40,401 nt of DNA from a virus: the IMG/VR virus record IMGVR_UViG_3300045988_056832. One strand, written 5' to 3'. A program made the translations under genes and the position numbers. The notes below the pieces were generated by a model, which did not search any database, had not been told where the DNA came from, and worked only from the letters and a program-made list of their open reading frames with translations. Every line of letters starts with the position of its first letter. The first letter of the stretch is position 1. Of the stretch, positions 4,747-29,912 are shown one piece after another.

Positions 4747-6183
4747 TTGGAAATAGAGTTAATCAAAAAGCTAATTAAAAAGCATACGCTAGGACATGCT
4801 GCCGTTGTTAGTGCTATAGCAGAAGCCGATAGGTATTATGACGTAGACAATGACATTTTGTATGAAAAACGAAAGCCTAAGAACTTAGAGGAAGCGCAGC
4901 AACAAGGCGATACATTTAATCCGGCACACACAGCGGATAATCGTACCGCCTATTCTTTTTATCCACTTTTAGTCGACCAAAAGACAGCATATATGTTTAC
5001 TGCGCCGCCAATTTATGATGTGAAAGATGACAAATTGAACGACGTAATAGCTGATGTGCTTGGAGATGCTTATGAAAAGAAATGTAAAGACTTGTGTGTA
5101 AAGGCCTCTAATGGCGGTATTGCCTGGGTGCATTACTGGATGGATGAAGCAGACACCTTTCAATGGGCCGTATTACCTGCAAATGAAATCATTCCTATCT
5201 GGGATAACAGAATTAATACAAAACTCGAAGGCGTATTGCGCGTATATGCAGATATTAACGATGAAGGCGAAAATATTACGGTATATGAATACTGGAACGA
5301 TAAAGAAGTTCAAGCGTTCTCCCTCCGTACAGGGGACGTAATTGAAACTCTATCACCGTATGCAGCATTTATTATGATTGATCCTAGCGGGGGCATGATG
5401 GATGTCGATACTATTCCTCATGCCATGGGGCAAGTCCCATTTATTCCGTTTGCCAATAATGCAGCACATACACCAGATTTAAAACGCATTAAGTCATTAA
5501 TCGATGTTTACGATAAAACGTATAGCGGATTTCTTAATGATCTTGAAGATGTTCAAGAGGTTGTATATGTCCTTACTAACTATGGCGGTGAAAATTTATC
5601 AGACTTCTTGGATGGAATGAAAAAATATAAGACAATCCAAATGGACTCTAACGGGCCCGATGACAGGACTGGTATTTCAACGCTGACAATTGATATTCCT
5701 ATTGAAGCCCGCAAGGAATTGCTCAACATTACACGCAAGGCCATCTTTGATATGGGACAGGGTATTGACCCTCAACAGCAAGGCTTAGACGGCACTAGCG
5801 GTGAAGCGATGAAGTTCTTATATACATTACTGGAGTTAAAAGCTGGCATGATGGAAACAGAGTTTCAGTTAGGGTTTAACCAACTAATCCGAGCGATTTG
5901 TAAAGTTCATGGGGCAGATAAAGTTAAAATCACGCAAACGTGGACCAGGACTTCAGTTAAGAATGATGGTGACTTGGTTGATATGTGCTCAAAATCGATG
6001 GGCGTTGTATCTAAACGAACTATTCTCGCTCATCATCCATTTGTAGAGGATGTAAACGAGGAAATTAAGCAGATCGAGGCTGAAGAAGCCGAAAACAACA
6101 ATGGTATTTACGATGATTGGGAATCAAATAATCATAATCATGAGCCTATGAACGGTCATGATGATAATAATGATGACCAATAG
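4747..6183 (+). CDS. Portal protein (SPP1 gp6-like)
   Basis: 478 aa directly after TerL. N-terminal AEADRYYDVDNDIL motif. Acidic C-terminus. Confidence 0.85.
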   Translation: MEIELIKKLIKKHTLGHAAVVSAIAEADRYYDVDNDILYEKRKPKNLEEAQQQGDTFNPAHTADNRTAYSFYPLLVDQKTAYMFTAPPIYDVKDDKLNDVIADVLGDAYEKKCKDLCVKASNGGIAWVHYWMDEADTFQWAVLPANEIIPIWDNRINTKLEGVLRVYADINDEGENITVYEYWNDKEVQAFSLRTGDVIETLSPYAAFIMIDPSGGMMDVDTIPHAMGQVPFIPFANNAAHTPDLKRIKSLIDVYDKTYSGFLNDLEDVQEVVYVLTNYGGENLSDFLDGMKKYKTIQMDSNGPDDRTGISTLTIDIPIEARKELLNITRKAIFDMGQGIDPQQQGLDGTSGEAMKFLYTLLELKAGMMETEFQLGFNQLIRAICKVHGADKVKITQTWTRTSVKNDGDLVDMCSKSMGVVSKRTILAHHPFVEDVNEEIKQIEAEEAENNNGIYDDWESNNHNHEPMNGHDDNNDDQ

Positions 6184-6252
6184 CGTAATTATAAATTTTT
6201 AATTCTCTTATTCGAGGCAGGTAAACCTCGGTAAAAACCGGAAGGAGAACAC

Positions 6253-6897
6253 ATGACACTAGCGGAATTACTTGAACAATTGGGGATTGCTAAAGAACAA
6301 CAGGAAGAGGCAACAAAACAATTAAAAGCATTCTTGGATGGTGAATATGTACCAAAGTCGCGTTTTAACGAGGTTAACGCGGAAAAGAAAAACCTTGAAA
6401 CAACTGTTGCTGATAGAGATAAGCAGTTGAAGGCATTGAAGGATAGCGAAGGGGATATTACAGCGCTAAAGGATCAGATTACAAAGTTGCAAGCTGATAA
6501 CAAGGCAAATGCTTTAAAGGCGGCTGCTGATTTGAAGGCGTTGAAACTATCTACTGCTGTTCAATTGGCAATCGGTGATACGGCTCAGGACGCTGAACTC
6601 GTAGCTAACTTGATTGATAAGTCTAAACTTATTCTTGGCGAAGACGGTAAAGTAACCGGCTTGAGTGAACAGCTTAAAGAATTAAAAGAATCTAAGTCGT
6701 TCTTGTTTAAGCCTGAAGGAGACCCACAATTTAAATATGAACCAAACAAAGGTCATGGGGACCCTAAGATTAATCCGTTTAGCAAGGAACATTTTAACCT
6801 TACTCAACAAGCACAGTTAATTAAGGATGACCCGGCGCAAGCGAAAACATTAGCGGCGCAAGCGGGCGTTAATATTGATTATTTAGGAGGTAACTAA
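6253..6897 (+). CDS. Scaffolding protein (GP20-like)
   Basis: Coiled-coil, K/E/L-rich protein of 214 aa immediately before the capsid gene. Confidence 0.75.
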   Translation: MTLAELLEQLGIAKEQQEEATKQLKAFLDGEYVPKSRFNEVNAEKKNLETTVADRDKQLKALKDSEGDITALKDQITKLQADNKANALKAAADLKALKLSTAVQLAIGDTAQDAELVANLIDKSKLILGEDGKVTGLSEQLKELKESKSFLFKPEGDPQFKYEPNKGHGDPKINPFSKEHFNLTQQAQLIKDDPAQAKTLAAQAGVNIDYLGGN

Positions 6898-7904
6898 TGC
6901 CAAATCAAAACTTCTCTTTTGACTTGCAGACATTTGCAGGAACTACTTTAAAAGACGTGATTACGCCTACAGCTCTTTTTGATGATTATGTGGTGAGACG
7001 TACATCTGAATTATCTGCTCTTTTCCAATCAGGTATCGTTGCTCGTGATGAAAAGTTTGATAGCCTAGCGAGCGAAGCAGCTCAGGTTCATAATATGCCT
7101 TTCTTTGCTGACTTATCCGGCGATTCCGAAGATGTTGTCGAAGGTGCAACCCTTACTGCCGATAAAATCGGTTCTAAAATGGATACATCCACAACTATTC
7201 GCCGTGCTAAAATGTGGGGCGCGACTGACTTGTCTGCGCAATTATCCGGCACAGATCCTATGTCTGCTATTGGTGATTTAGTAGCAGGATTTTGGGCTCG
7301 TGATCACCAAAAAGAATTGATTAATATCTTGAATGGCGTATTTGCATCTACAAGCATGGCTGATCATGTATTGGATATTTCTACTAAAACAGCTAAAGCG
7401 GCGAATTTCTCTGGCGAAGCATTCATTGATGCAATGCAACTCATGGGTGATGCTCGCAACTCTTTAACAGCTGTTGCGATGCATTCTGCTACTAAGTCTT
7501 ACTTAGATAAGTTGAACCTCATTCAAACTATTCGCCAATCTGATGCTGTATCTTTTGATACTTACATGGGACGTCGCGTAATTGTTGATGATGGGTGCCC
7601 TGTTGATTCCGGAAATTATACAACATATTTGTTTGGTGAAGGTGCAATCGCATACGGCGTTGGACATCCTGTAGGATTGATTTCTGCAGAAGTTGATCGC
7701 GATAAAAAGATGGGCTCCGGTGTGGATTACTTAATCTCTCGTAAAGCATTTATCTTACATCCTCGCGGGGTTGCATGGCAAAACAAGACTCGTACTAATG
7801 CTGAATCTGTATCTCGTGCTGAATTAGCAAATAAAGATAACTGGAAAGCAGTGTACGAGCCTAAACAAATTCGCATTGTTAAGTTTGTGCATAAATTAGG
7901 CTAG
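6897..7904 (+). CDS. Major capsid protein
   Basis: 335 aa. ATG overlaps the scaffold stop. Position and size fit a major capsid protein. Confidence 0.75.
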   Translation: MPNQNFSFDLQTFAGTTLKDVITPTALFDDYVVRRTSELSALFQSGIVARDEKFDSLASEAAQVHNMPFFADLSGDSEDVVEGATLTADKIGSKMDTSTTIRRAKMWGATDLSAQLSGTDPMSAIGDLVAGFWARDHQKELINILNGVFASTSMADHVLDISTKTAKAANFSGEAFIDAMQLMGDARNSLTAVAMHSATKSYLDKLNLIQTIRQSDAVSFDTYMGRRVIVDDGCPVDSGNYTTYLFGEGAIAYGVGHPVGLISAEVDRDKKMGSGVDYLISRKAFILHPRGVAWQNKTRTNAESVSRAELANKDNWKAVYEPKQIRIVKFVHKLG

Positions 7905-21025: not shown

Positions 21026-22015
21026 ATGAGTAATTACAATAAAATTATTCCGACTTTAGCCGGTAGCAATCTATTGGTTGAGTCGGTTAAATCTAAAAAG
21101 CCACTCATCTTTACTCGTATCGCATTAGGTGATGGCACATTAACCGAAAGCGAAAGTATTGAAGGCTTAACTGCATTAAAGCACCCTATGGCGCAGAACT
21201 CTGTACAAGCAATTAACAGTCGAGTGAACGGCGAAATTGACGTTGTAGCGACTATTTCTAATGCAAATATTACAAGCGGTTTTTATGCTCGTGAATTAGG
21301 TGTGTTTGCTAAAGTCGGTGATACTGGTACGGAAAAGCTATTCGCTTATACGAATGCTGGTGCACAAGCAAGCTATACTCCAGCTGGTACATCCTTAGAT
21401 GAAAAGTTGATTACTGTAACCTTTTATATTGGTAATGATGTTAATGTAAAAATCAACCTTAACAGTCAACTATACATCACGCAAGCTGCATTAGATGCAC
21501 ATAATTCGGCTACAAATGCACATCAAGACGCTTTTAATAAAAAACTAGATATTAGTTCGAACCAGTACGCTAAATTTATTGCTAAACACAATCAAGGGCT
21601 ACAAGTAACAAAAGGCGATAATTCACAAGAAATTATTAACTTTATTGCAAATAACTACAACGATGGAGATACTAATAAAGTACTTAATCTAAGTACGCTT
21701 AAAAGTTTATTAGGACAAGGTGCTATCGTGGCATCTAAACTTGATGCAAATGCTGGTTTCGTAAAGTTTGCTAATGGTTTCACTATCCAGTGGGGAGTGG
21801 GTGGTCAAGATAACGTAACTAAGACAGAGGTACGATTTCCTATCAAATTTACAACTTTATTCATGGCGAATGCTATTGATGCGTACTGGTCAGGTTCTGA
21901 CACGCCTAGGTATTTCGCTAACTCCGTGTCAGAGAGCAACACAACTAAGGCCGTATTTTCGGCAAGCGATAGATATGCTGCTTCTTATTACTGGTTTGCA
22001 CTAGGAATAATCTAA
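21026..22015 (+). CDS. Tail fibre protein. The C-terminal 72 residues after QWG form the currently expressed receptor-binding tip.
   Basis: N-terminal IIPTLAGSNLL...FTRIALGDG fibre anchor. C-terminal IQWG...RFPIKF...YYWFALGII tip. Confidence 0.8.
   Translation: MSNYNKIIPTLAGSNLLVESVKSKKPLIFTRIALGDGTLTESESIEGLTALKHPMAQNSVQAINSRVNGEIDVVATISNANITSGFYARELGVFAKVGDTGTEKLFAYTNAGAQASYTPAGTSLDEKLITVTFYIGNDVNVKINLNSQLYITQAALDAHNSATNAHQDAFNKKLDISSNQYAKFIAKHNQGLQVTKGDNSQEIINFIANNYNDGDTNKVLNLSTLKSLLGQGAIVASKLDANAGFVKFANGFTIQWGVGGQDNVTKTEVRFPIKFTTLFMANAIDAYWSGSDTPRYFANSVSESNTTKAVFSASDRYAASYYWFALGII
21782..21796. repeat. Left inverted repeat ACTatCCAGTGGGGA inside the tail-fibre gene
   Basis: The 10-nt core CCAGTGGGGA (21787..21796) is the exact reverse complement of 22293..22302. 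Confidence 0.8.
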
Positions 22016-22061
22016 TTCCCTAGGATAATGAACATAATCTGATCACCGACACATTTGGATA

Positions 22062-22304
22062 TTAAGCCTTCCCTACGGCCATCCAAACAAAACTACCTGT
22101 GTCCGCTCTGGTGGTTAAGAATCGGATGGTGTTTCTATTAGCTTGAGAGAACCCACTATTCCAAGTAATAAAGCATTGTGCACCAGAAGTTTCAACACTT
22201 ACAGAGTCATCGGTAGCTAATGCTATTAGTACAGTGCTGCTAATCGGTAGAGAAATATCCTTATAGTACTTATTAGCATCAAACCAAGTTAATCCCCACT
22301 GGGG
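22062..22304 (-). other. Silent alternative tail-fibre tip cassette (no start codon, no RBS)
   Basis: The minus-strand frame reads PQWGLTWFDANKYYKDISLPISSTVLIALATDDSVSVETSGAQCFITWNSGFSQANRNTIRFLTTRADTGSFVWMAVGKA*. It shares QWG, the P-I-x-x-T core and the W-x-A-x-G ending with the expressed tip. Confidence 0.7.
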
Positions 22305-22307
22305 AGT
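22293..22307. repeat. Right inverted repeat TCCCCACTGGggAGT (core within the palindrome-armed TCCCC-ACT-GGGGA)
   Basis: Reverse complement of the left repeat. It touches the recombinase stop codon. Confidence 0.8.
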
Positions 22308-23158
22308 TATTTTAATAATTCTATGGCTTTTCGTAGCTCACGAATAGTCTTATGTGTGTATACTCTGGTGGTAATATCGCCTTGTTTGTGGCCTAGTAAA
22401 GAACGTAATGTGTTGGGCGGTGCTACCGAATCAAGTAAACTTGCAAATGTATGACGAGTATCGTGGATAGTATGCTTACAATTTAACTGTTTCATAATAT
22501 CCTTGAAATTCTTATGGAATGTTGTGTAACTGATGGTAAATAGATATGCTTCGGTGCAGGTGTATACTTGCTCTATTAGTGGCATGATGCGGTGATGTAA
22601 TGGAATGATACGACCTTCACCAGCTTTCGTTTTAGCGTGTCTTACGATGAGGTATGACGATCGCCTATGGATGTCTTGCTTACGTAAATTAAGAAGCTCA
22701 CCTATGCGGAGGCCTGTGTATAGCAGTATTAAAATCATATGGGAATAAGAAGTATCTATTGACCATAATTTATTAATTTGTTGACGAGTAAATACTTTTC
22801 TCTGAATCGTTGGTACATTGGGGCCTAGGTTCAAGTGTAGGGTGTAATTCGTGATAGCGTAATCCTTGATGATTGCGTAATTAAATAATTGATTAAGTAA
22901 CGTACGGACTTTCTTACATGATGAGTAGGAAAGTCCTTTTACGTGCATGGAATTAATCACGTTCTGAAGGTGCTGAAAATGAATATTCGTGATAGGCATA
23001 TCCGATATGTTGGATATGTGTTTAAAAGCAATGTGATAAGACTTAACAGCGCTATCAGAAATAGACTGAGAGTGAATAGGCAGCCACTCGTTAAATAGTT
23101 GCCTTAATGTAATGGTATTGCGTTGTCTACGGCTTAATATAATAGCGTAACGGCGCAT
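22307..23158 (-). CDS. Tyrosine recombinase without an arm-binding domain (putative tail-fibre invertase)
   Basis: Catalytic set GLRIGEL (R), AKTKAG (K), HDTRHTF (HxxR), LLGHK (H), RVYTH (Y). RBS GGAGGTG. Antisense to the late operon. Confidence 0.9.
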   Translation of the reverse strand: MRRYAIILSRRQRNTITLRQLFNEWLPIHSQSISDSAVKSYHIAFKHISNISDMPITNIHFQHLQNVINSMHVKGLSYSSCKKVRTLLNQLFNYAIIKDYAITNYTLHLNLGPNVPTIQRKVFTRQQINKLWSIDTSYSHMILILLYTGLRIGELLNLRKQDIHRRSSYLIVRHAKTKAGEGRIIPLHHRIMPLIEQVYTCTEAYLFTISYTTFHKNFKDIMKQLNCKHTIHDTRHTFASLLDSVAPPNTLRSLLGHKQGDITTRVYTHKTIRELRKAIELLK

Positions 23159-23184
23159 AATTTCACCTCCGAAAGGATACTACT

Positions 23185-23577
23185 ATGAATCAATATGTAT
23201 TTATTTTAAATGAACAAGGCGAGCGTATTACATCTTTTGTTAATAATATGATTAGCAAAGATGAATTACTAGATCATGCTAAACAAGAATGGCCAGATGC
23301 AGCGGATTATATTTACTCTGCAGACGGCGATAGTATGCTAGATGAATTTATGGCTGGCAAGTTTTATGTAAATGGTGAGTTTGTAATTCCGCAACCAAAA
23401 GAACCAACTAAGGCTGAACAAATTGCAGAAATTAAAAATTACTATGATAAACGATTTGATGCCCTTGATAAAGCGGTATTGCGTAGACGATTGTCTAATG
23501 CAGATATTAGTGATTTGCAAGCACAATATAAAACTTTACAAGCTGAAATGGTTGCTAAAATTAAGGCGGTGAAATAA
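23185..23577 (+). CDS. Hypothetical phage protein (in the position of XkdW)
   Basis: 130-aa ORF in the position after the fibre gene. Confidence 0.5.
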   Translation: MNQYVFILNEQGERITSFVNNMISKDELLDHAKQEWPDAADYIYSADGDSMLDEFMAGKFYVNGEFVIPQPKEPTKAEQIAEIKNYYDKRFDALDKAVLRRRLSNADISDLQAQYKTLQAEMVAKIKAVK

Positions 23578-23703
23578 TGGAAGAAATCAAAAGCAATGTA
23601 CCTGTAATGCGTTTTTGTGAATATTGTTGGGCTACTTTAAATGAAAATGGCACTTGCCCTACAGAGGGTTGTATTCATAATGATCTAATGGATTTGGAAG
23701 AGG

Positions 23704-25150
<1,447 letters not shown>

Positions 25151-27017: not shown

Positions 27018-27117
27018 GATTATATAAAAATATAGTGAAATATAAATAGATACGCAAGTAATAGAGTTAGGTGGTTACTGTATTTATAAGTTTTATGCAT
27101 GAACTTTAAATGCCACG

Positions 27118-27177
27118 CCATCTTGAGGGGGTGGTGAGCTAACGCTCGTGCGGGTTCAAGTCCCGCCAACCGCACCA
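27118..27177 (+). other. attP core: 3' portion of a tRNA-Leu(GAG)-like gene (anticodon arm, long variable arm, T arm, 3' acceptor, CCA)
   Basis: CCATC-TTGAGGG-GGTGG, GAGC-taac-GCTC, GCGGG-TTCAAGT-CCCGC, CAACCGC-A-CCA. No matching 5' acceptor or D arm lies upstream. Confidence 0.7.
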
Positions 27178-27189
27178 AGCTAATAAAAT

Positions 27190-27226: not shown

Positions 27227-27272
27227 TTTGACATCATAAAGTCTTATGGGGTTTGACATCATTTTGACATCA
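27227..27272 (+). repeat. Three TTTGACATCA repeats (P' arm)
   Basis: Copies at 27227..27236, 27252..27261 and 27263..27272. The last overlaps the int stop codon. Confidence 0.6.
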
Positions 27273-28343
27273 GAAAATTTTAGCAATGCGTTCCACGATG
27301 TCATCTTCCATTTTAGGAGTGACGTGTGAATAGGTATCCATTGTTTCTTGAAACGAAGCATGGCCTAGGCGCTCTTGTATGGCTTTCATATTTGCCCCAT
27401 TTTCAATGAGAAGTGTGGCGTGGGTATGTCTTGTACCGTGCATAGTAAAAGTTGGCTTACCGATTAAATTGGCGTATTTCTTACATAACTTACTGACTTC
27501 ATCAGGGCAGCGAGGTGCACCTTTAATGCCAGGGAATACTAGATTATTATTAATCCAGTTCATTGTCTTAATTCTGCGTTTATCTATGACTGTTTTATGT
27601 TTTGCAAGTTCCTGAAGAGTTTCCGTATCAATGGCTATTATTCGTTTGGATGATGTAGTTTTAGTTGTATTTGATATAACTGCAGTTGATCCGATTTTGA
27701 GTGCTGTTTGTGAAATGGATATGGTCGATTTCTTAAAGTCGATATCAGACCATCTTAGGCCTAGCAATTCAGATCGCCGCATGCCGGTTGCAAATGCTAA
27801 TTTAAATAATGCATGGTGTTCGGAATTTGATATATTTGATAGGAAATTTTTAACTTCATCTGCAGACAACGTTACCATATGGCGTACTTTAACCTGTTTT
27901 GGCCTATCAAGGTTACGCATATAATTTTTTGGGATGATATCATCTTTTACTGCTTGTTCTAATATCGAGCTCAGTATCGTCATGGTGTATGATATAGTTC
28001 GAGAGGATAAACCATCCATAGATTCAAATACATATCTTAGTGTGTTTGGCTTGATTTCAGCCAACTTTACACCGCCGATCTTATCTCGAATATAGCGATT
28101 TATGATGCCTGTATAACTTTGATAGGTAGCTGGTGTTATGCTCTTTTCTTTTAGTTGCAACCAAATATTAATCCAGGTATTTAATGAGATGGTAGCATCG
28201 AAATTGGCGCACGATTGGTTAGCGTTTATATATTTCTCCATCGCTTCCGTAGCAGCTTTCTTTGTGCTGCCATAAAAGTATTTTCGCTTGCCATTTATCA
28301 CCTTTGACACTTGGTAGCGGCCATCGGGTCGTTTTTTAGCCAT
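27270..28343 (-). CDS. int: Phage integrase (tyrosine recombinase with an N-terminal arm-binding domain)
   Basis: MAKKRPDGRYQVSKVINGKRKYFYG arm domain, GMRRSELLGL, HGTRHTHATLL, LGHASFQETMDTYSH. The start is set at the ATG downstream of the terminator hairpin. Confidence 0.9.
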   Translation of the reverse strand: MAKKRPDGRYQVSKVINGKRKYFYGSTKKAATEAMEKYINANQSCANFDATISLNTWINIWLQLKEKSITPATYQSYTGIINRYIRDKIGGVKLAEIKPNTLRYVFESMDGLSSRTISYTMTILSSILEQAVKDDIIPKNYMRNLDRPKQVKVRHMVTLSADEVKNFLSNISNSEHHALFKLAFATGMRRSELLGLRWSDIDFKKSTISISQTALKIGSTAVISNTTKTTSSKRIIAIDTETLQELAKHKTVIDKRRIKTMNWINNNLVFPGIKGAPRCPDEVSKLCKKYANLIGKPTFTMHGTRHTHATLLIENGANMKAIQERLGHASFQETMDTYSHVTPKMEDDIVERIAKIF

Positions 28344-28370
28344 ATTTTTAATCCTTATAATAATTAATAA

Positions 28371-28411
28371 AAAGATGAGGCCTTGTTCCATAAGAACAAG
28401 GCCTCATCTTT
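28371..28411 (-). terminator. Strong intrinsic terminator between the MazF-fold gene and int
   Basis: 18-bp perfect stem AAAGATGAGGCCTTGTTC / GAACAAGGCCTCATCTTT with a 5-nt loop. T-rich on the minus strand. Confidence 0.75.
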
Positions 28412-28522: not shown

Positions 28523-29266
28523 TTACTTTATATCGTATAACTCTTTTATAACTGCTCGAATTTTATCAGTCACATGTTTATCTACTCGCATATTATAAAG
28601 TGCATCTTTATGATATCTAGGACTTTGTATGCGTATTTTACTTATAGTCCTTATTTGAGAAACAATGGCAACGGTGCCTGCATTTAACCGCGACACTTCT
28701 TTCATGATTATATCGTGCTTAGCAAGTAGGTCTTTGGCTTCAGCTAACTGTTTTTCAAAGCGTTTAACATCATTAGCCGTTAACGTCTTTTTGTCAGTAT
28801 TTTCGAATTCCTTTACATACTCTTCGCATTTGTCTAACATCTTTCCGGATCTATCCAGTAGAACTGTAAATAATTCTGTTCCCAAATAAACATCTGTTTT
28901 ATATAGTGTTTTTGGACTCTCTTTGCTTAACTTCAAAGACCTCAGAGGGACAACTGTGACTGTGCTGCTTTTAGAATTACTAGGTGCAAGTACTATCGCA
29001 TAATGAAGGCCCCCGAACTCAGATCCTATCCCAAAGCCCAAGTCTACTTTAACTATATCTCCAGGTTTAAATTGAGGAAAATACTTTGGATCAAAAGTTT
29101 CTTCTTGTTTTATATATCTTAAATAATTACGCAGCCAATAATAGAGCAGGGCAGCCTTGTGTTGATCTGAACCTAGTATATTTTTTAAAAACGCACTTAT
29201 GTTACTCGCAAGTTCCGTTATTTTCGACAATAAAGCCCCTTTGTTTTCCGGCTTTTTTAAATCCAT
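28523..29266 (-). CDS. MazF/PemK-fold protein with an N-terminal helical extension and a large internal coiled-coil insertion
   Basis: PGDIVKVDLGFGIGSEFGGLHYAIVLA, VTVVPLRS, GTVAIVSQIRTISKIRI. Start at MDLKKPENKG, with RBS AAGGAG 7 nt upstream. Confidence 0.7.
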   Translation of the reverse strand: MDLKKPENKGALLSKITELASNISAFLKNILGSDQHKAALLYYWLRNYLRYIKQEETFDPKYFPQFKPGDIVKVDLGFGIGSEFGGLHYAIVLAPSNSKSSTVTVVPLRSLKLSKESPKTLYKTDVYLGTELFTVLLDRSGKMLDKCEEYVKEFENTDKKTLTANDVKRFEKQLAEAKDLLAKHDIIMKEVSRLNAGTVAIVSQIRTISKIRIQSPRYHKDALYNMRVDKHVTDKIRAVIKELYDIK

Positions 29267-29342
29267 ACAAAAACTCCTTGTTGTACATTTTATATTTTCC
29301 TTTATTATAAAGCCCTTTGCCTCGTAGCAGGACAGGGGATTT

Positions 29343-29912
29343 TTATATCCCGAAAATCCCTCTAATGATGCTACGACTACGTTCGTGTTTAGCTTTACGC
29401 TCAGCTTCTTTTTGTTGTGCAATTCTTGCTTCCTGTTGTTCTTTTGCTAGTTGCTCTTTTTCTTCAGCACGTGCTTGTGCCTCTGCAGCTTGTTGCTTTT
29501 TGTAGTCTGCTAATTTAACGTCACGGCCGACTAGTCCCTTTACAGATGCAATAAGCGCTTCATCACCCATTCCTGGGGCAGCGACATGGTTTTGGCCGTT
29601 AAAATTATAGTTACTAATTATGGAATCAGATCCGCTTCGATATATGTTTCTATCAAATAAATCAACGGAATTATCAGAGAAATGAATTCTATAAGATAAA
29701 AGTTCTTGTGTTCCTAAAGTTCGTACCCATACGGCCCAAGCCCTAGCTGTGTCGGTAGAAGGGTCGTAGGACAATGTGTTTAAATCGACTTTCCCTGTGT
29801 AATCAGAATTTGAATAAAACCATTGCCAACGTGCGTCATTGAATTCTTTAGCACTAACCATCATTGTTACGCATAGTACAAATATTGTTGCTAATACTAA
29901 CCCTTTTTTCAT
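29343..29912 (-). CDS. Secreted or membrane-associated protein with a charged C-terminal coiled coil
   Basis: Signal peptide MKKGLVLATIFVLCVTMMVSA. C-terminal KKQQAAEAQARAEEKEQLAKEQQEARIAQQKEAERKAKHE. Confidence 0.65.
   Translation of the reverse strand: MKKGLVLATIFVLCVTMMVSAKEFNDARWQWFYSNSDYTGKVDLNTLSYDPSTDTARAWAVWVRTLGTQELLSYRIHFSDNSVDLFDRNIYRSGSDSIISNYNFNGQNHVAAPGMGDEALIASVKGLVGRDVKLADYKKQQAAEAQARAEEKEQLAKEQQEARIAQQKEAERKAKHERSRSIIRGIFGI

Follow-up and report, generated by a model that had tools for sequence, protein, structure and literature searches.

In prophages of Bifidobacterium breve and Bifidobacterium longum, an armless recombinase, the constant part of a receptor-binding protein (RBP), variable C-terminal cassettes and an 11-bp crossover site (rix) make up the Rin shufflon (Mavrich et al. 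2018, PMC6109161), which has a counterpart in Eggerthella lenta prophages (PMC8778435). Here, we describe a locus of similar layout in a viral sequence of 40,401 nucleotides (IMG/VR record IMGVR_UViG_3300045988_056832; this whole stretch is referred to below as the window). The host genus is Veillonella, a Negativicute. An open reading frame (ORF) at 22307..23158 lies on the minus strand beside a tail fibre gene, and we consider it highly probable that it encodes a tyrosine-family DNA invertase driving a minimal two-cassette tail-fibre shufflon. The features of the locus are as follows.

21026..21786, plus strand: constant part of the fibre gene, residues 1 to 254, with the first strand of the Gp53-like_C tip (Pfam, PHROG).
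21787..21796, plus strand: fibre-side core CCAGTGGGGA, fibre codons I254-Q255-W256-G257; breakpoint of the natural inversions.
21788..22015, plus strand: expressed C-terminal cassette F1, 75 aa, QWGVGG...FALGII, then stop (translation, family comparison).
21797..22292, no strand: invertible segment between the cores, 496 bp; both orientations found in assemblies.
22016..22061, minus strand: relic of a third cassette, family F4, C-terminal ...VGDQIMFIILGN, then stop, with destroyed site TATCCAAATGTG (decay series in relatives).
22062..22301, minus strand: silent, start-less cassette F0, 79 aa, QWGLTWFD...FVWMAVGKA, then stop (translation; no ORF called in frame).
22293..22302, minus strand: recombinase-side core CCAGTGGGGA, 4 nt past the recombinase stop; inversion breakpoint.
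22307..23158, minus strand: armless tyrosine recombinase, putative fibre invertase (PF00589, catalytic residues, identical protein on at least 22 contigs).

Comparison with described inversion systems

As in the window, the Rin loci have an armless tyrosine recombinase that is convergent with the RBP or fibre gene, and a separate arm-bearing integrase elsewhere in the phage. In both, a constant N-terminal part is followed by promoterless C-terminal cassettes, each behind a short (10 to 11 bp) asymmetric crossover site, the last site lies a few nucleotides from the recombinase stop, and the avoidance of deletions poses the same puzzle. The Rin site, however, is TTCCCTAACCC (rix) rather than CCAGTGGGGA, and the host is actinobacterial rather than a low-G+C Negativicute. 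The Rin RBPs have been described as lactococcal-phage-RBP-like (PMC6109161), in contrast to the Gp53-like_C tip, contractile tail and Mu-type baseplate genes found here. The window also differs in having its crossover inside the tip domain and in having two cassettes only.

Rin-type loci were recovered from IMG/VR by their paired rix sites (TTCCCTAACCC approximately 300 nt apart), which yielded 64 contigs (L124 to L187), and one of these, L138 (61% G+C; 4790..7732), was examined. Its layout was as published, with a 291-aa PF00589 protein that has a TTG start and a stop codon 6 nt from the last rix (4 nt from the last site in the window). This enzyme was 21% identical to the window recombinase (32 bits), a lower score than those of phage integrases, the phage's own integrase and Rci. 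The window system shows the functional characteristics of a Rin-type shufflon, namely, an armless flanking enzyme, start-less cassettes behind sites, and exact inversions. Orthology with the Rin family was rejected on the basis of the 21% identity and the different crossover site.

The R64 shufflon (reference record for Rci, NC_005014) also has a tyrosine recombinase beside a cluster of invertible segments, swaps the C-terminal end of an adhesin (PilV, which sets partner specificity) and shows inversions only. Its multiple short asymmetric sites, like those of the window group, have an identical central region, and their arms show poor conservation on one side. Rci is 23% identical to the window recombinase over 239 residues (46.6 bits), but it is 384 aa long and extends approximately 100 residues further at the C terminus, whereas the window protein ends with the shared catalytic region. 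The target in R64 is the PilV conjugative pilus tip rather than a phage fibre, and the sfx site has a different sequence. Membership in the Rci/R64 group was rejected on the grounds of the low identity, the lack of the C-terminal extension and the target, a tail fibre in a sheath/tube/baseplate module.

In Mu (Gin/G), P1 (Cin/C) and p15B (Min), a myovirus tail fibre has its C-terminal part exchanged by inversion, as is proposed here; the window phage also has Mu-like baseplate genes (Gp48-like and baseplate J). A serine invertase of the Gin/Cin/Min/Hin type was rejected, the window protein being a member of the PF00589 tyrosine superfamily. Tyrosine recombinases need a short identical overlap, whereas the crossover of serine invertases spans 2 bp inside longer sites of dyad symmetry. 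The invertible segment of Mu also carries a fibre assembly gene. In the window, unlike Mu, the weak candidate for such a gene (23185..23577) lies outside the segment, just past the recombinase; it encodes a 130-aa protein with a weak PHROG match (tail fibre assembly, E = 0.007) and, if this is a chaperone, it would have to serve both tips. A preliminary description of the window had called the pairing of a tyrosine recombinase with a phage fibre inverton unusual. Rin provides a precedent for it (PMC6109161, PMC8778435).

The ORF encodes an intact armless tyrosine recombinase

The ORF is intact and specifies a protein of 283 aa, with an ATG start and a ribosome-binding site (GGAGGTG) close upstream. 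Pfam analysis of the protein revealed a Phage_integrase domain (PF00589; 4.4e-21) at residues 125 to 271 and a SAM-like core-binding domain (PF14659; 5e-6) at residues 17 to 71, the latter also matched by PF13102 and PF22022. Since the core-binding domains begin at residue 17, with only 16 residues before them, there is no room for an arm domain. The residues R151, K178, H232, R235, H257 and Y267 were invariant in all 48 full-length 283-aa homologues (48/48), so that both characteristics of PF00589 members, the catalytic residue set and the core-binding domain, are present. These results bear out the preliminary description, which had recognized the catalytic motifs and the SAM-like domain in the 283-aa ORF and the lack of an arm domain.

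Homologues with 85 to 98% identity were found in Veillonella parvula, Veillonella dispar and uncultured Veillonella. The element is carried by 8 Veillonella genomes, beside at least 127 IMG/VR contigs, and the contigs that encode the identical protein include human oral metagenome assemblies. Pairwise dN/dS among homologues was approximately 0.10 (mean dS, 0.53), indicative of purifying selection. Together with the intact active site, this marks it as a functional gene rather than the degraded second integrase that the preliminary description had held out as an option. An integrase is encoded separately at 27270..28391 on the minus strand (357/373 aa) and is 25% identical to the recombinase (52 bits).

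The recombinase is the sole non-overlapped minus-strand gene between positions 48 and 26869 (ORFs of at least 90 aa), and the earlier statement that it is the only minus-strand gene in the late region holds within that definition. Only 26 nt separate it from the next plus-strand gene, and its promoter must therefore lie inside that gene. Late-operon transcription may interfere with the antisense recombinase gene. Within the latter, a hairpin with a 12-bp stem followed by TTTT (22906..22936, plus strand) resembles a terminator on the late-operon strand. It is near-invariant in 86 homologues, with changes mostly in the loop and one stem change (T-G to T-A), although its conservation may merely reflect that of the peptide GLSYSSCKKVR.

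The 496-bp segment occurs in both orientations in metagenome assemblies

Segment orientation was compared in ten contigs that encode an identical recombinase. The 496-bp segment was present at 100% identity and in the window orientation in 6/10 contigs (L104, L105, L109 to L111, and L113) and was inverted at 100% identity in 3/10 (L106 to L108); the tenth, L112, carried an inverted copy with 98.8% identity. In L106 and L107, both inverted, gene callers found a 333-aa fibre (254 + 79 residues) as well as an orphan ORF of 72 aa that matches Gp53-like_C weakly and lies where F1 is now silent. L011 and L012, with flanks 99.8% identical, differ by a precise 516-bp inversion, as do L001 and L002 (flanks 99.0 to 99.8% identical). 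At each end, the alignments of both pairs share the 10-bp core and nothing more, and L002 is a complete chromosome, that of V. parvula UTDB1-3 (CP019721). The segment inverts naturally at precisely these cores, with an intact gene as either product, and has a conserved enzyme gene next to it in every case. With a separate integrase in the phage and the segment found in both orientations beside an identical recombinase, the earlier suggestion that this enzyme is surplus to integration and serves the fibre inverted repeat is strongly supported.

Crossover sites

The 10-mer CCAGTGGGGA has exactly two copies in the window, in inverted orientation, against an expectation of 0.01; two or more copies were seen in 0/100 shuffles. 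The core is absent from the rest of the window, integrase/att region included. The 15-nt inverted repeat by itself is statistically unremarkable (16 comparable pairs within 6 kb), and what makes it significant is the exact core, together with the reading frame and the comparative evidence. At 22293..22302, the core of the right repeat reads TCCCCACTGG. The extended palindromic site, ACTCCCCAGTGGGGA, runs to 22307 and, as was stated in the preliminary description, overlaps the recombinase stop codon (22307..22309), in this case by 1 nt. Joined to cassette F1, the recombinase-side site forms a perfect 17-nt palindrome, ACTCCCCAGTGGGGAGT. On the plus strand, the small palindrome of this site and the T-rich run that follows (22293..22305), approximately 280 nt downstream of the fibre stop, were flagged as terminator-like, which may be incidental.

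Over approximately 220 sites, the invariant part is CCAGTGGG, with T at -3 in all of them and A at +10 in 97 to 98%. At both junctions, the left flank is constant and the right flank (the cassette) is exchanged. Core position 9, which has a G/T polymorphism, always moves with the cassette, and positions -1 and -2 always stay with the left flank; accordingly, the crossover must fall inside the 8 bp CCAGTGGG. With the 7 bp CCAGTGG as the overlap, the two arms have a weak inner symmetry in common (A-n-T-n-Y). The cleavage positions within the site are inferred.

Fibre tips, multicassette relatives and the cassette relic

The fibre has a Phage_tail_fib domain (Pfam) at its N terminus and Gp53-like_C at residues 247 to 327, and is classed as a tail fibre by PHROG. 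Inversion swaps residues 255 to 329 for the 79-aa F0, converting the 329-aa fibre to one of 333 aa. Among related loci, cassette F1 is the expressed one in 34 and takes a silent position in 33, and F0 was found in the expressed position in 11 loci. F0 alone gave no Gp53-like_C or other match in Pfam or PHROGs. When it was fused to the constant part, positions 1 to 83 of the 84-position Gp53-like_C profile were aligned (E = 8.5e-4). The corresponding fusions of F2 to F6 gave full-length, above-threshold matches (E = 1e-6 to 5.5e-13). Overall, there are seven cassette families of 74 to 81 aa, which start with QWG or QWV and end in hydrophobic -x-(I/V/L)-G-, and the five common families each occupy both expressed and silent positions.

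In all scorable relatives (83/83), a site begins 5 nt after the recombinase stop. The scored relatives have an inverted site in the fibre gene and 0 to 2 further sites between, in either orientation, giving 2 to 4 sites in total. They hold 2 to 4 cassettes in shuffled arrangements, of which the window is a reduced, two-cassette version. Between L079 and L089, a 459-bp subsegment alone is inverted (flanks 97 to 99.9% identical), so subsegments invert independently, and between L078 and L079 the subsegments are permuted (phage flanks 97 to 99.9% identical). In L108 and L112, the identical recombinase and the segment (100% and 98.8% identical, respectively) stand on a different fibre N terminus (302 and 298 aa) and beside a different baseplate module (Tail_P2_I, Baseplate_J_N), so the shufflon passes from phage to phage in one piece.

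The F4 relic of the window falls at the end of a decay series. In L086 the cassette is intact and the core reads CCAGTGGAT; in L015 and L017 the core is mutated to CCAGTGAG and frameshifts are present; L021 has a shorter remnant, and the window retains 46 nt. Site loss appears to precede cassette loss. Decay of a cassette with a mutated site would be expected if it is the site that gives the cassette access to expression.

Other fibre-linked clades use a different core

Two further fibre-linked clades, of 271 aa (P0124) and 308 aa (P0273), encode enzymes 42 to 45% identical to that of the window. Their genes are antisense beside a fibre gene that comes after baseplate J and Gp48-like genes, as in the window. 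Both clades, P0124 (L101) and P0273 (L102 and L103), use the core CCAAGGGGGA, which codes for QGG and abuts the stop codon, and have 2 to 4 cassettes; one contig of these clades ends 11 nt after the recombinase stop. Since the divergent clades carry a different core, enzyme and site covary. The 308-aa clade retains a truncated arm-like N terminus (KRPYVVYSVIGYY...) and is possibly an intermediate between integrase and invertase. No close relatives of P0124 were found in IMG/VR or JGI metagenome contigs. The fibre of L102 is 692 aa long, with three 192-nt tandem repeats.

Lineage of the recombinase

The closest sequence relatives of the window enzyme are arm-bearing phage integrases and related metagenomic proteins (such as the XerC-annotated integrase of phiHugo, the JD-Fnp2 integrase and P0122), with similarity across the whole core-binding and catalytic region (33 to 36% identity for the annotated phages, 48% for P0122). 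The scores against the window enzyme were as follows.

P0122, arm-bearing relative, 324 aa: 48% identity, 238 bits.
P0273, fibre-linked 308-aa clade: 45% identity, 236 bits.
P0124, fibre-linked and armless, 271 aa: 42% identity, 207 bits.
Arm-bearing integrases of Fusobacterium and Butyrivibrio phages: 31 to 36% identity, 129 to 167 bits.

The arm-bearing integrases differ from the window enzyme in having approximately 55 to 65 extra N-terminal residues, which constitute the arm-binding domain. Canonical integrase architecture was rejected for the window enzyme, as the alignment starts at integrase residue 63 to 68 and window residue 12 to 16. A fibre association of the closest annotated phage homologues was also rejected; inspection of three phage genomes showed them to be ordinary integrases located at the lysis/lysogeny module. 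The genomic context of P0122 was sought and not found.

The best relatives of solved structure are XerA-like proteins, and NCBIfam gave only subthreshold Xer and integron matches. Xer membership was rejected on these scores (XerA, 78.8 bits versus a cutoff of 220; XerD, 67.6 versus 329.6; XerC, 55.4 versus 335), the armless architecture being the only likeness. The FimB/FimE type was rejected as well, since NF007370 and NF007371 were not among the NCBIfam matches at an E value of 0.01 or below and BLASTP to FimB and FimE was not significant.

Judged by sequence, the window enzyme looks like an independent recruitment from the integrase lineage, Rin- and R64-like in its working and a member of neither family. 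Graded forms are available, from the arm-bearing 324-aa protein (48% identity) through the truncated-arm, fibre-linked 308-aa form to the armless 283- and 271-aa enzymes. On balance, we favor an independently evolved fibre-shufflon family, convergent with Rin and R64, whose invertase would have arisen from integrases by arm loss, which would be common in human-associated Veillonella phages, and which would comprise natural pairs of enzyme and site specificity (CCAGTGGGGA versus CCAAGGGGGA) and at least seven exchangeable Gp53-like tip cassettes. Our literature searches found no paper describing a shufflon in Veillonella phages.

Proposed mechanism and alternative explanations

We propose that recombinase subunits bind the two inverted core-type sites, whose weakly symmetric arms (A-n-T-n-Y) would surround the asymmetric overlap CCAGTGG(G). 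The sites would then synapse, and strand exchange inside the identical 7- to 8-bp overlap would invert the 496-bp segment, joining the constant part (1 to 254) either to F1 (75 aa, giving the 329-aa fibre of the present state) or to F0 (79 aa, giving the 333-aa fibre). The swap would replace almost the entire Gp53-like_C tip domain, the presumed receptor-binding end. Switching probably takes place in the lysogen, so that induced virions would carry one of two tips, a form of host-range bet-hedging. The invertase would belong to a lineage of arm-bearing phage integrases in which the arm domain was lost.

Several points weigh against this model. Catalysis by the 283-aa recombinase is inferred from adjacency, conservation and the covariation of enzyme and site, and the two tips are taken to differ in receptor specificity on the model of Mu G, P1 C and Rin. 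The sequence common to all sites is short (8 to 10 bp plus T at -3 and A at +10), and arm recognition at so short a conserved site is unclear. The avoidance of deletion at direct repeats in the multicassette relatives, whose enzymes have neither an arm domain nor an Rci-like C-terminal domain, is unexplained. The Gp53-like_C match of the F0 fusion is weak and below threshold (20.3 bits versus a cutoff of 24.9). A promoter scan of 21900..23700 returned 7 promoter-like matches, with 7.4 expected by chance, and none was assignable. Among the 29 window ORFs scanned, a set that does not include every small ORF, there was no serine recombinase or resolvase domain.

The explanation that competes best, although we think it unlikely, is that the inversion is real and has another catalyst, either a host invertase acting in trans or the phage integrase (27270..28391), the ORF being a second integrase or an Xer-like dimer resolvase. 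In its favor, the best NCBIfam matches of the ORF are Xer-type models, and trans-acting invertases exist, such as Mpi of Bacteroides, as does a bifidophage inverton that has no adjacent recombinase (PMC6109161). The Xer models, however, fall far under their cutoffs (78.8 versus 220 and 67.6 versus 329.6), and the site abuts the stop codon of this very gene in 83/83 relatives. The different core of the divergent fibre-linked clades is hard to square with one shared enzyme acting in trans, the window core has no further copy in the window, the att region included, and recombinase and shufflon have moved together onto a different baseplate/fibre backbone (L108 and L112). The adjacent enzyme is the likely catalyst because of its invariable adjacency, the purifying selection on it, its covariation with the site, the lack of a serine recombinase among the ORFs scanned, the absence of the core from att, and the mobility of the module.

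We give still less credence to the orientations being fossil polymorphisms, that is, old and rare inversions that became fixed in separate lineages while the recombinase ceased to switch. The comparison was made on assemblies rather than on reads of a clonal population, and the window shufflon is reduced, with a relic third cassette and a dead site, both of which would suit such a history. Against it, 496 nt are 100% identical in both orientations beside a 100% identical recombinase, and that recombinase is under purifying selection with its active site intact. Contig ends are also informative: of 86 contigs, 21 end no more than 1 kb downstream of the recombinase stop (11 of these no more than 250 nt away), but a single one ends in the 1 kb upstream. 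Such a pile-up is what assembly yields when one sample holds both orientations, and it indicates mixtures inside single samples.

Least credible of all is an assembly artefact or RecA-dependent homologous recombination between short inverted repeats, for although repeats can lead metagenome assemblers to misjoin, and many contigs do end here, the pattern recurs in a complete chromosome (V. parvula UTDB1-3, CP019721; L002) and in metagenome-assembled genomes and viromes from many studies and assemblers, both orientations yield intact in-frame fibre genes, and the breakpoints are constant with a shared identity of approximately 10 bp, far too short for homologous recombination.

Implications of the shufflon

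Veillonella is abundant in the human oral and gut flora, and the element offers a concrete, testable host-range determinant for a common group of Veillonella prophages. The principle is that of the known phage and plasmid shufflons; what is new here looks like an independently derived variant with an unrelated enzyme lineage. A tyrosine invertase combined with C-terminal cassettes would then have arisen more than once in phages and would be a general design rather than a Bifidobacterium curiosity. An independent family, if real, would have no earlier described counterpart among contractile-tailed phages of a diderm Bacillota host. Along with the two cores, the enzymes graded from arm-bearing to truncated to armless provide natural material on how an integrase becomes an invertase and on how a minimal site (8 to 10 conserved bp) specifies inversion without deletion. 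The locus also explains the breaks in assemblies of these phages, and seven tip cassettes that share one fixed point of fusion (QWG) could serve as parts for retargeting Veillonella phages or tailocin-like particles.

Phage context and neighboring genes

The genes surrounding the locus encode terminase, portal, sheath, tube, tape measure, sheath initiator, baseplate J, a Mu Gp48-like protein and the fibre. The presence of sheath, tube, sheath initiator and baseplate J indicates a contractile tail, and of the "Gram-positive myovirus" of the preliminary description, the myovirus stands. The Gram-positive assignment does not, the host being Veillonella; Negativicutes have an outer membrane (diderm). 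A second assembly, ERZ28628096 scaffold_206 (40,397 nt), was 100% identical to the window across the 5.9 kb compared, and blastn (distant mode) of the region DNA against GenBank phages gave no match.

Beyond the recombinase, 24050..25150 encodes a second fibre-like protein with collagen triple-helix repeats and four copies of an approximately 72-nt unit (FTQEQL..LKGPKGD). This module is replaced by other genes in phages with an identical recombinase (L104 versus L105), an exchange that indicates mosaicism. ARAGORN found no complete tRNA in the window. A spurious minus-strand ORF at 27020..27178 translates as ...LAGLEPAR..., which looks like a tRNA 3' fragment and would fit an attP core beside the integrase. 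Adjoining the integrase, a 299-aa ORF (28523..29422, minus strand) has a central PemK/MazF-like toxin domain (3e-8).

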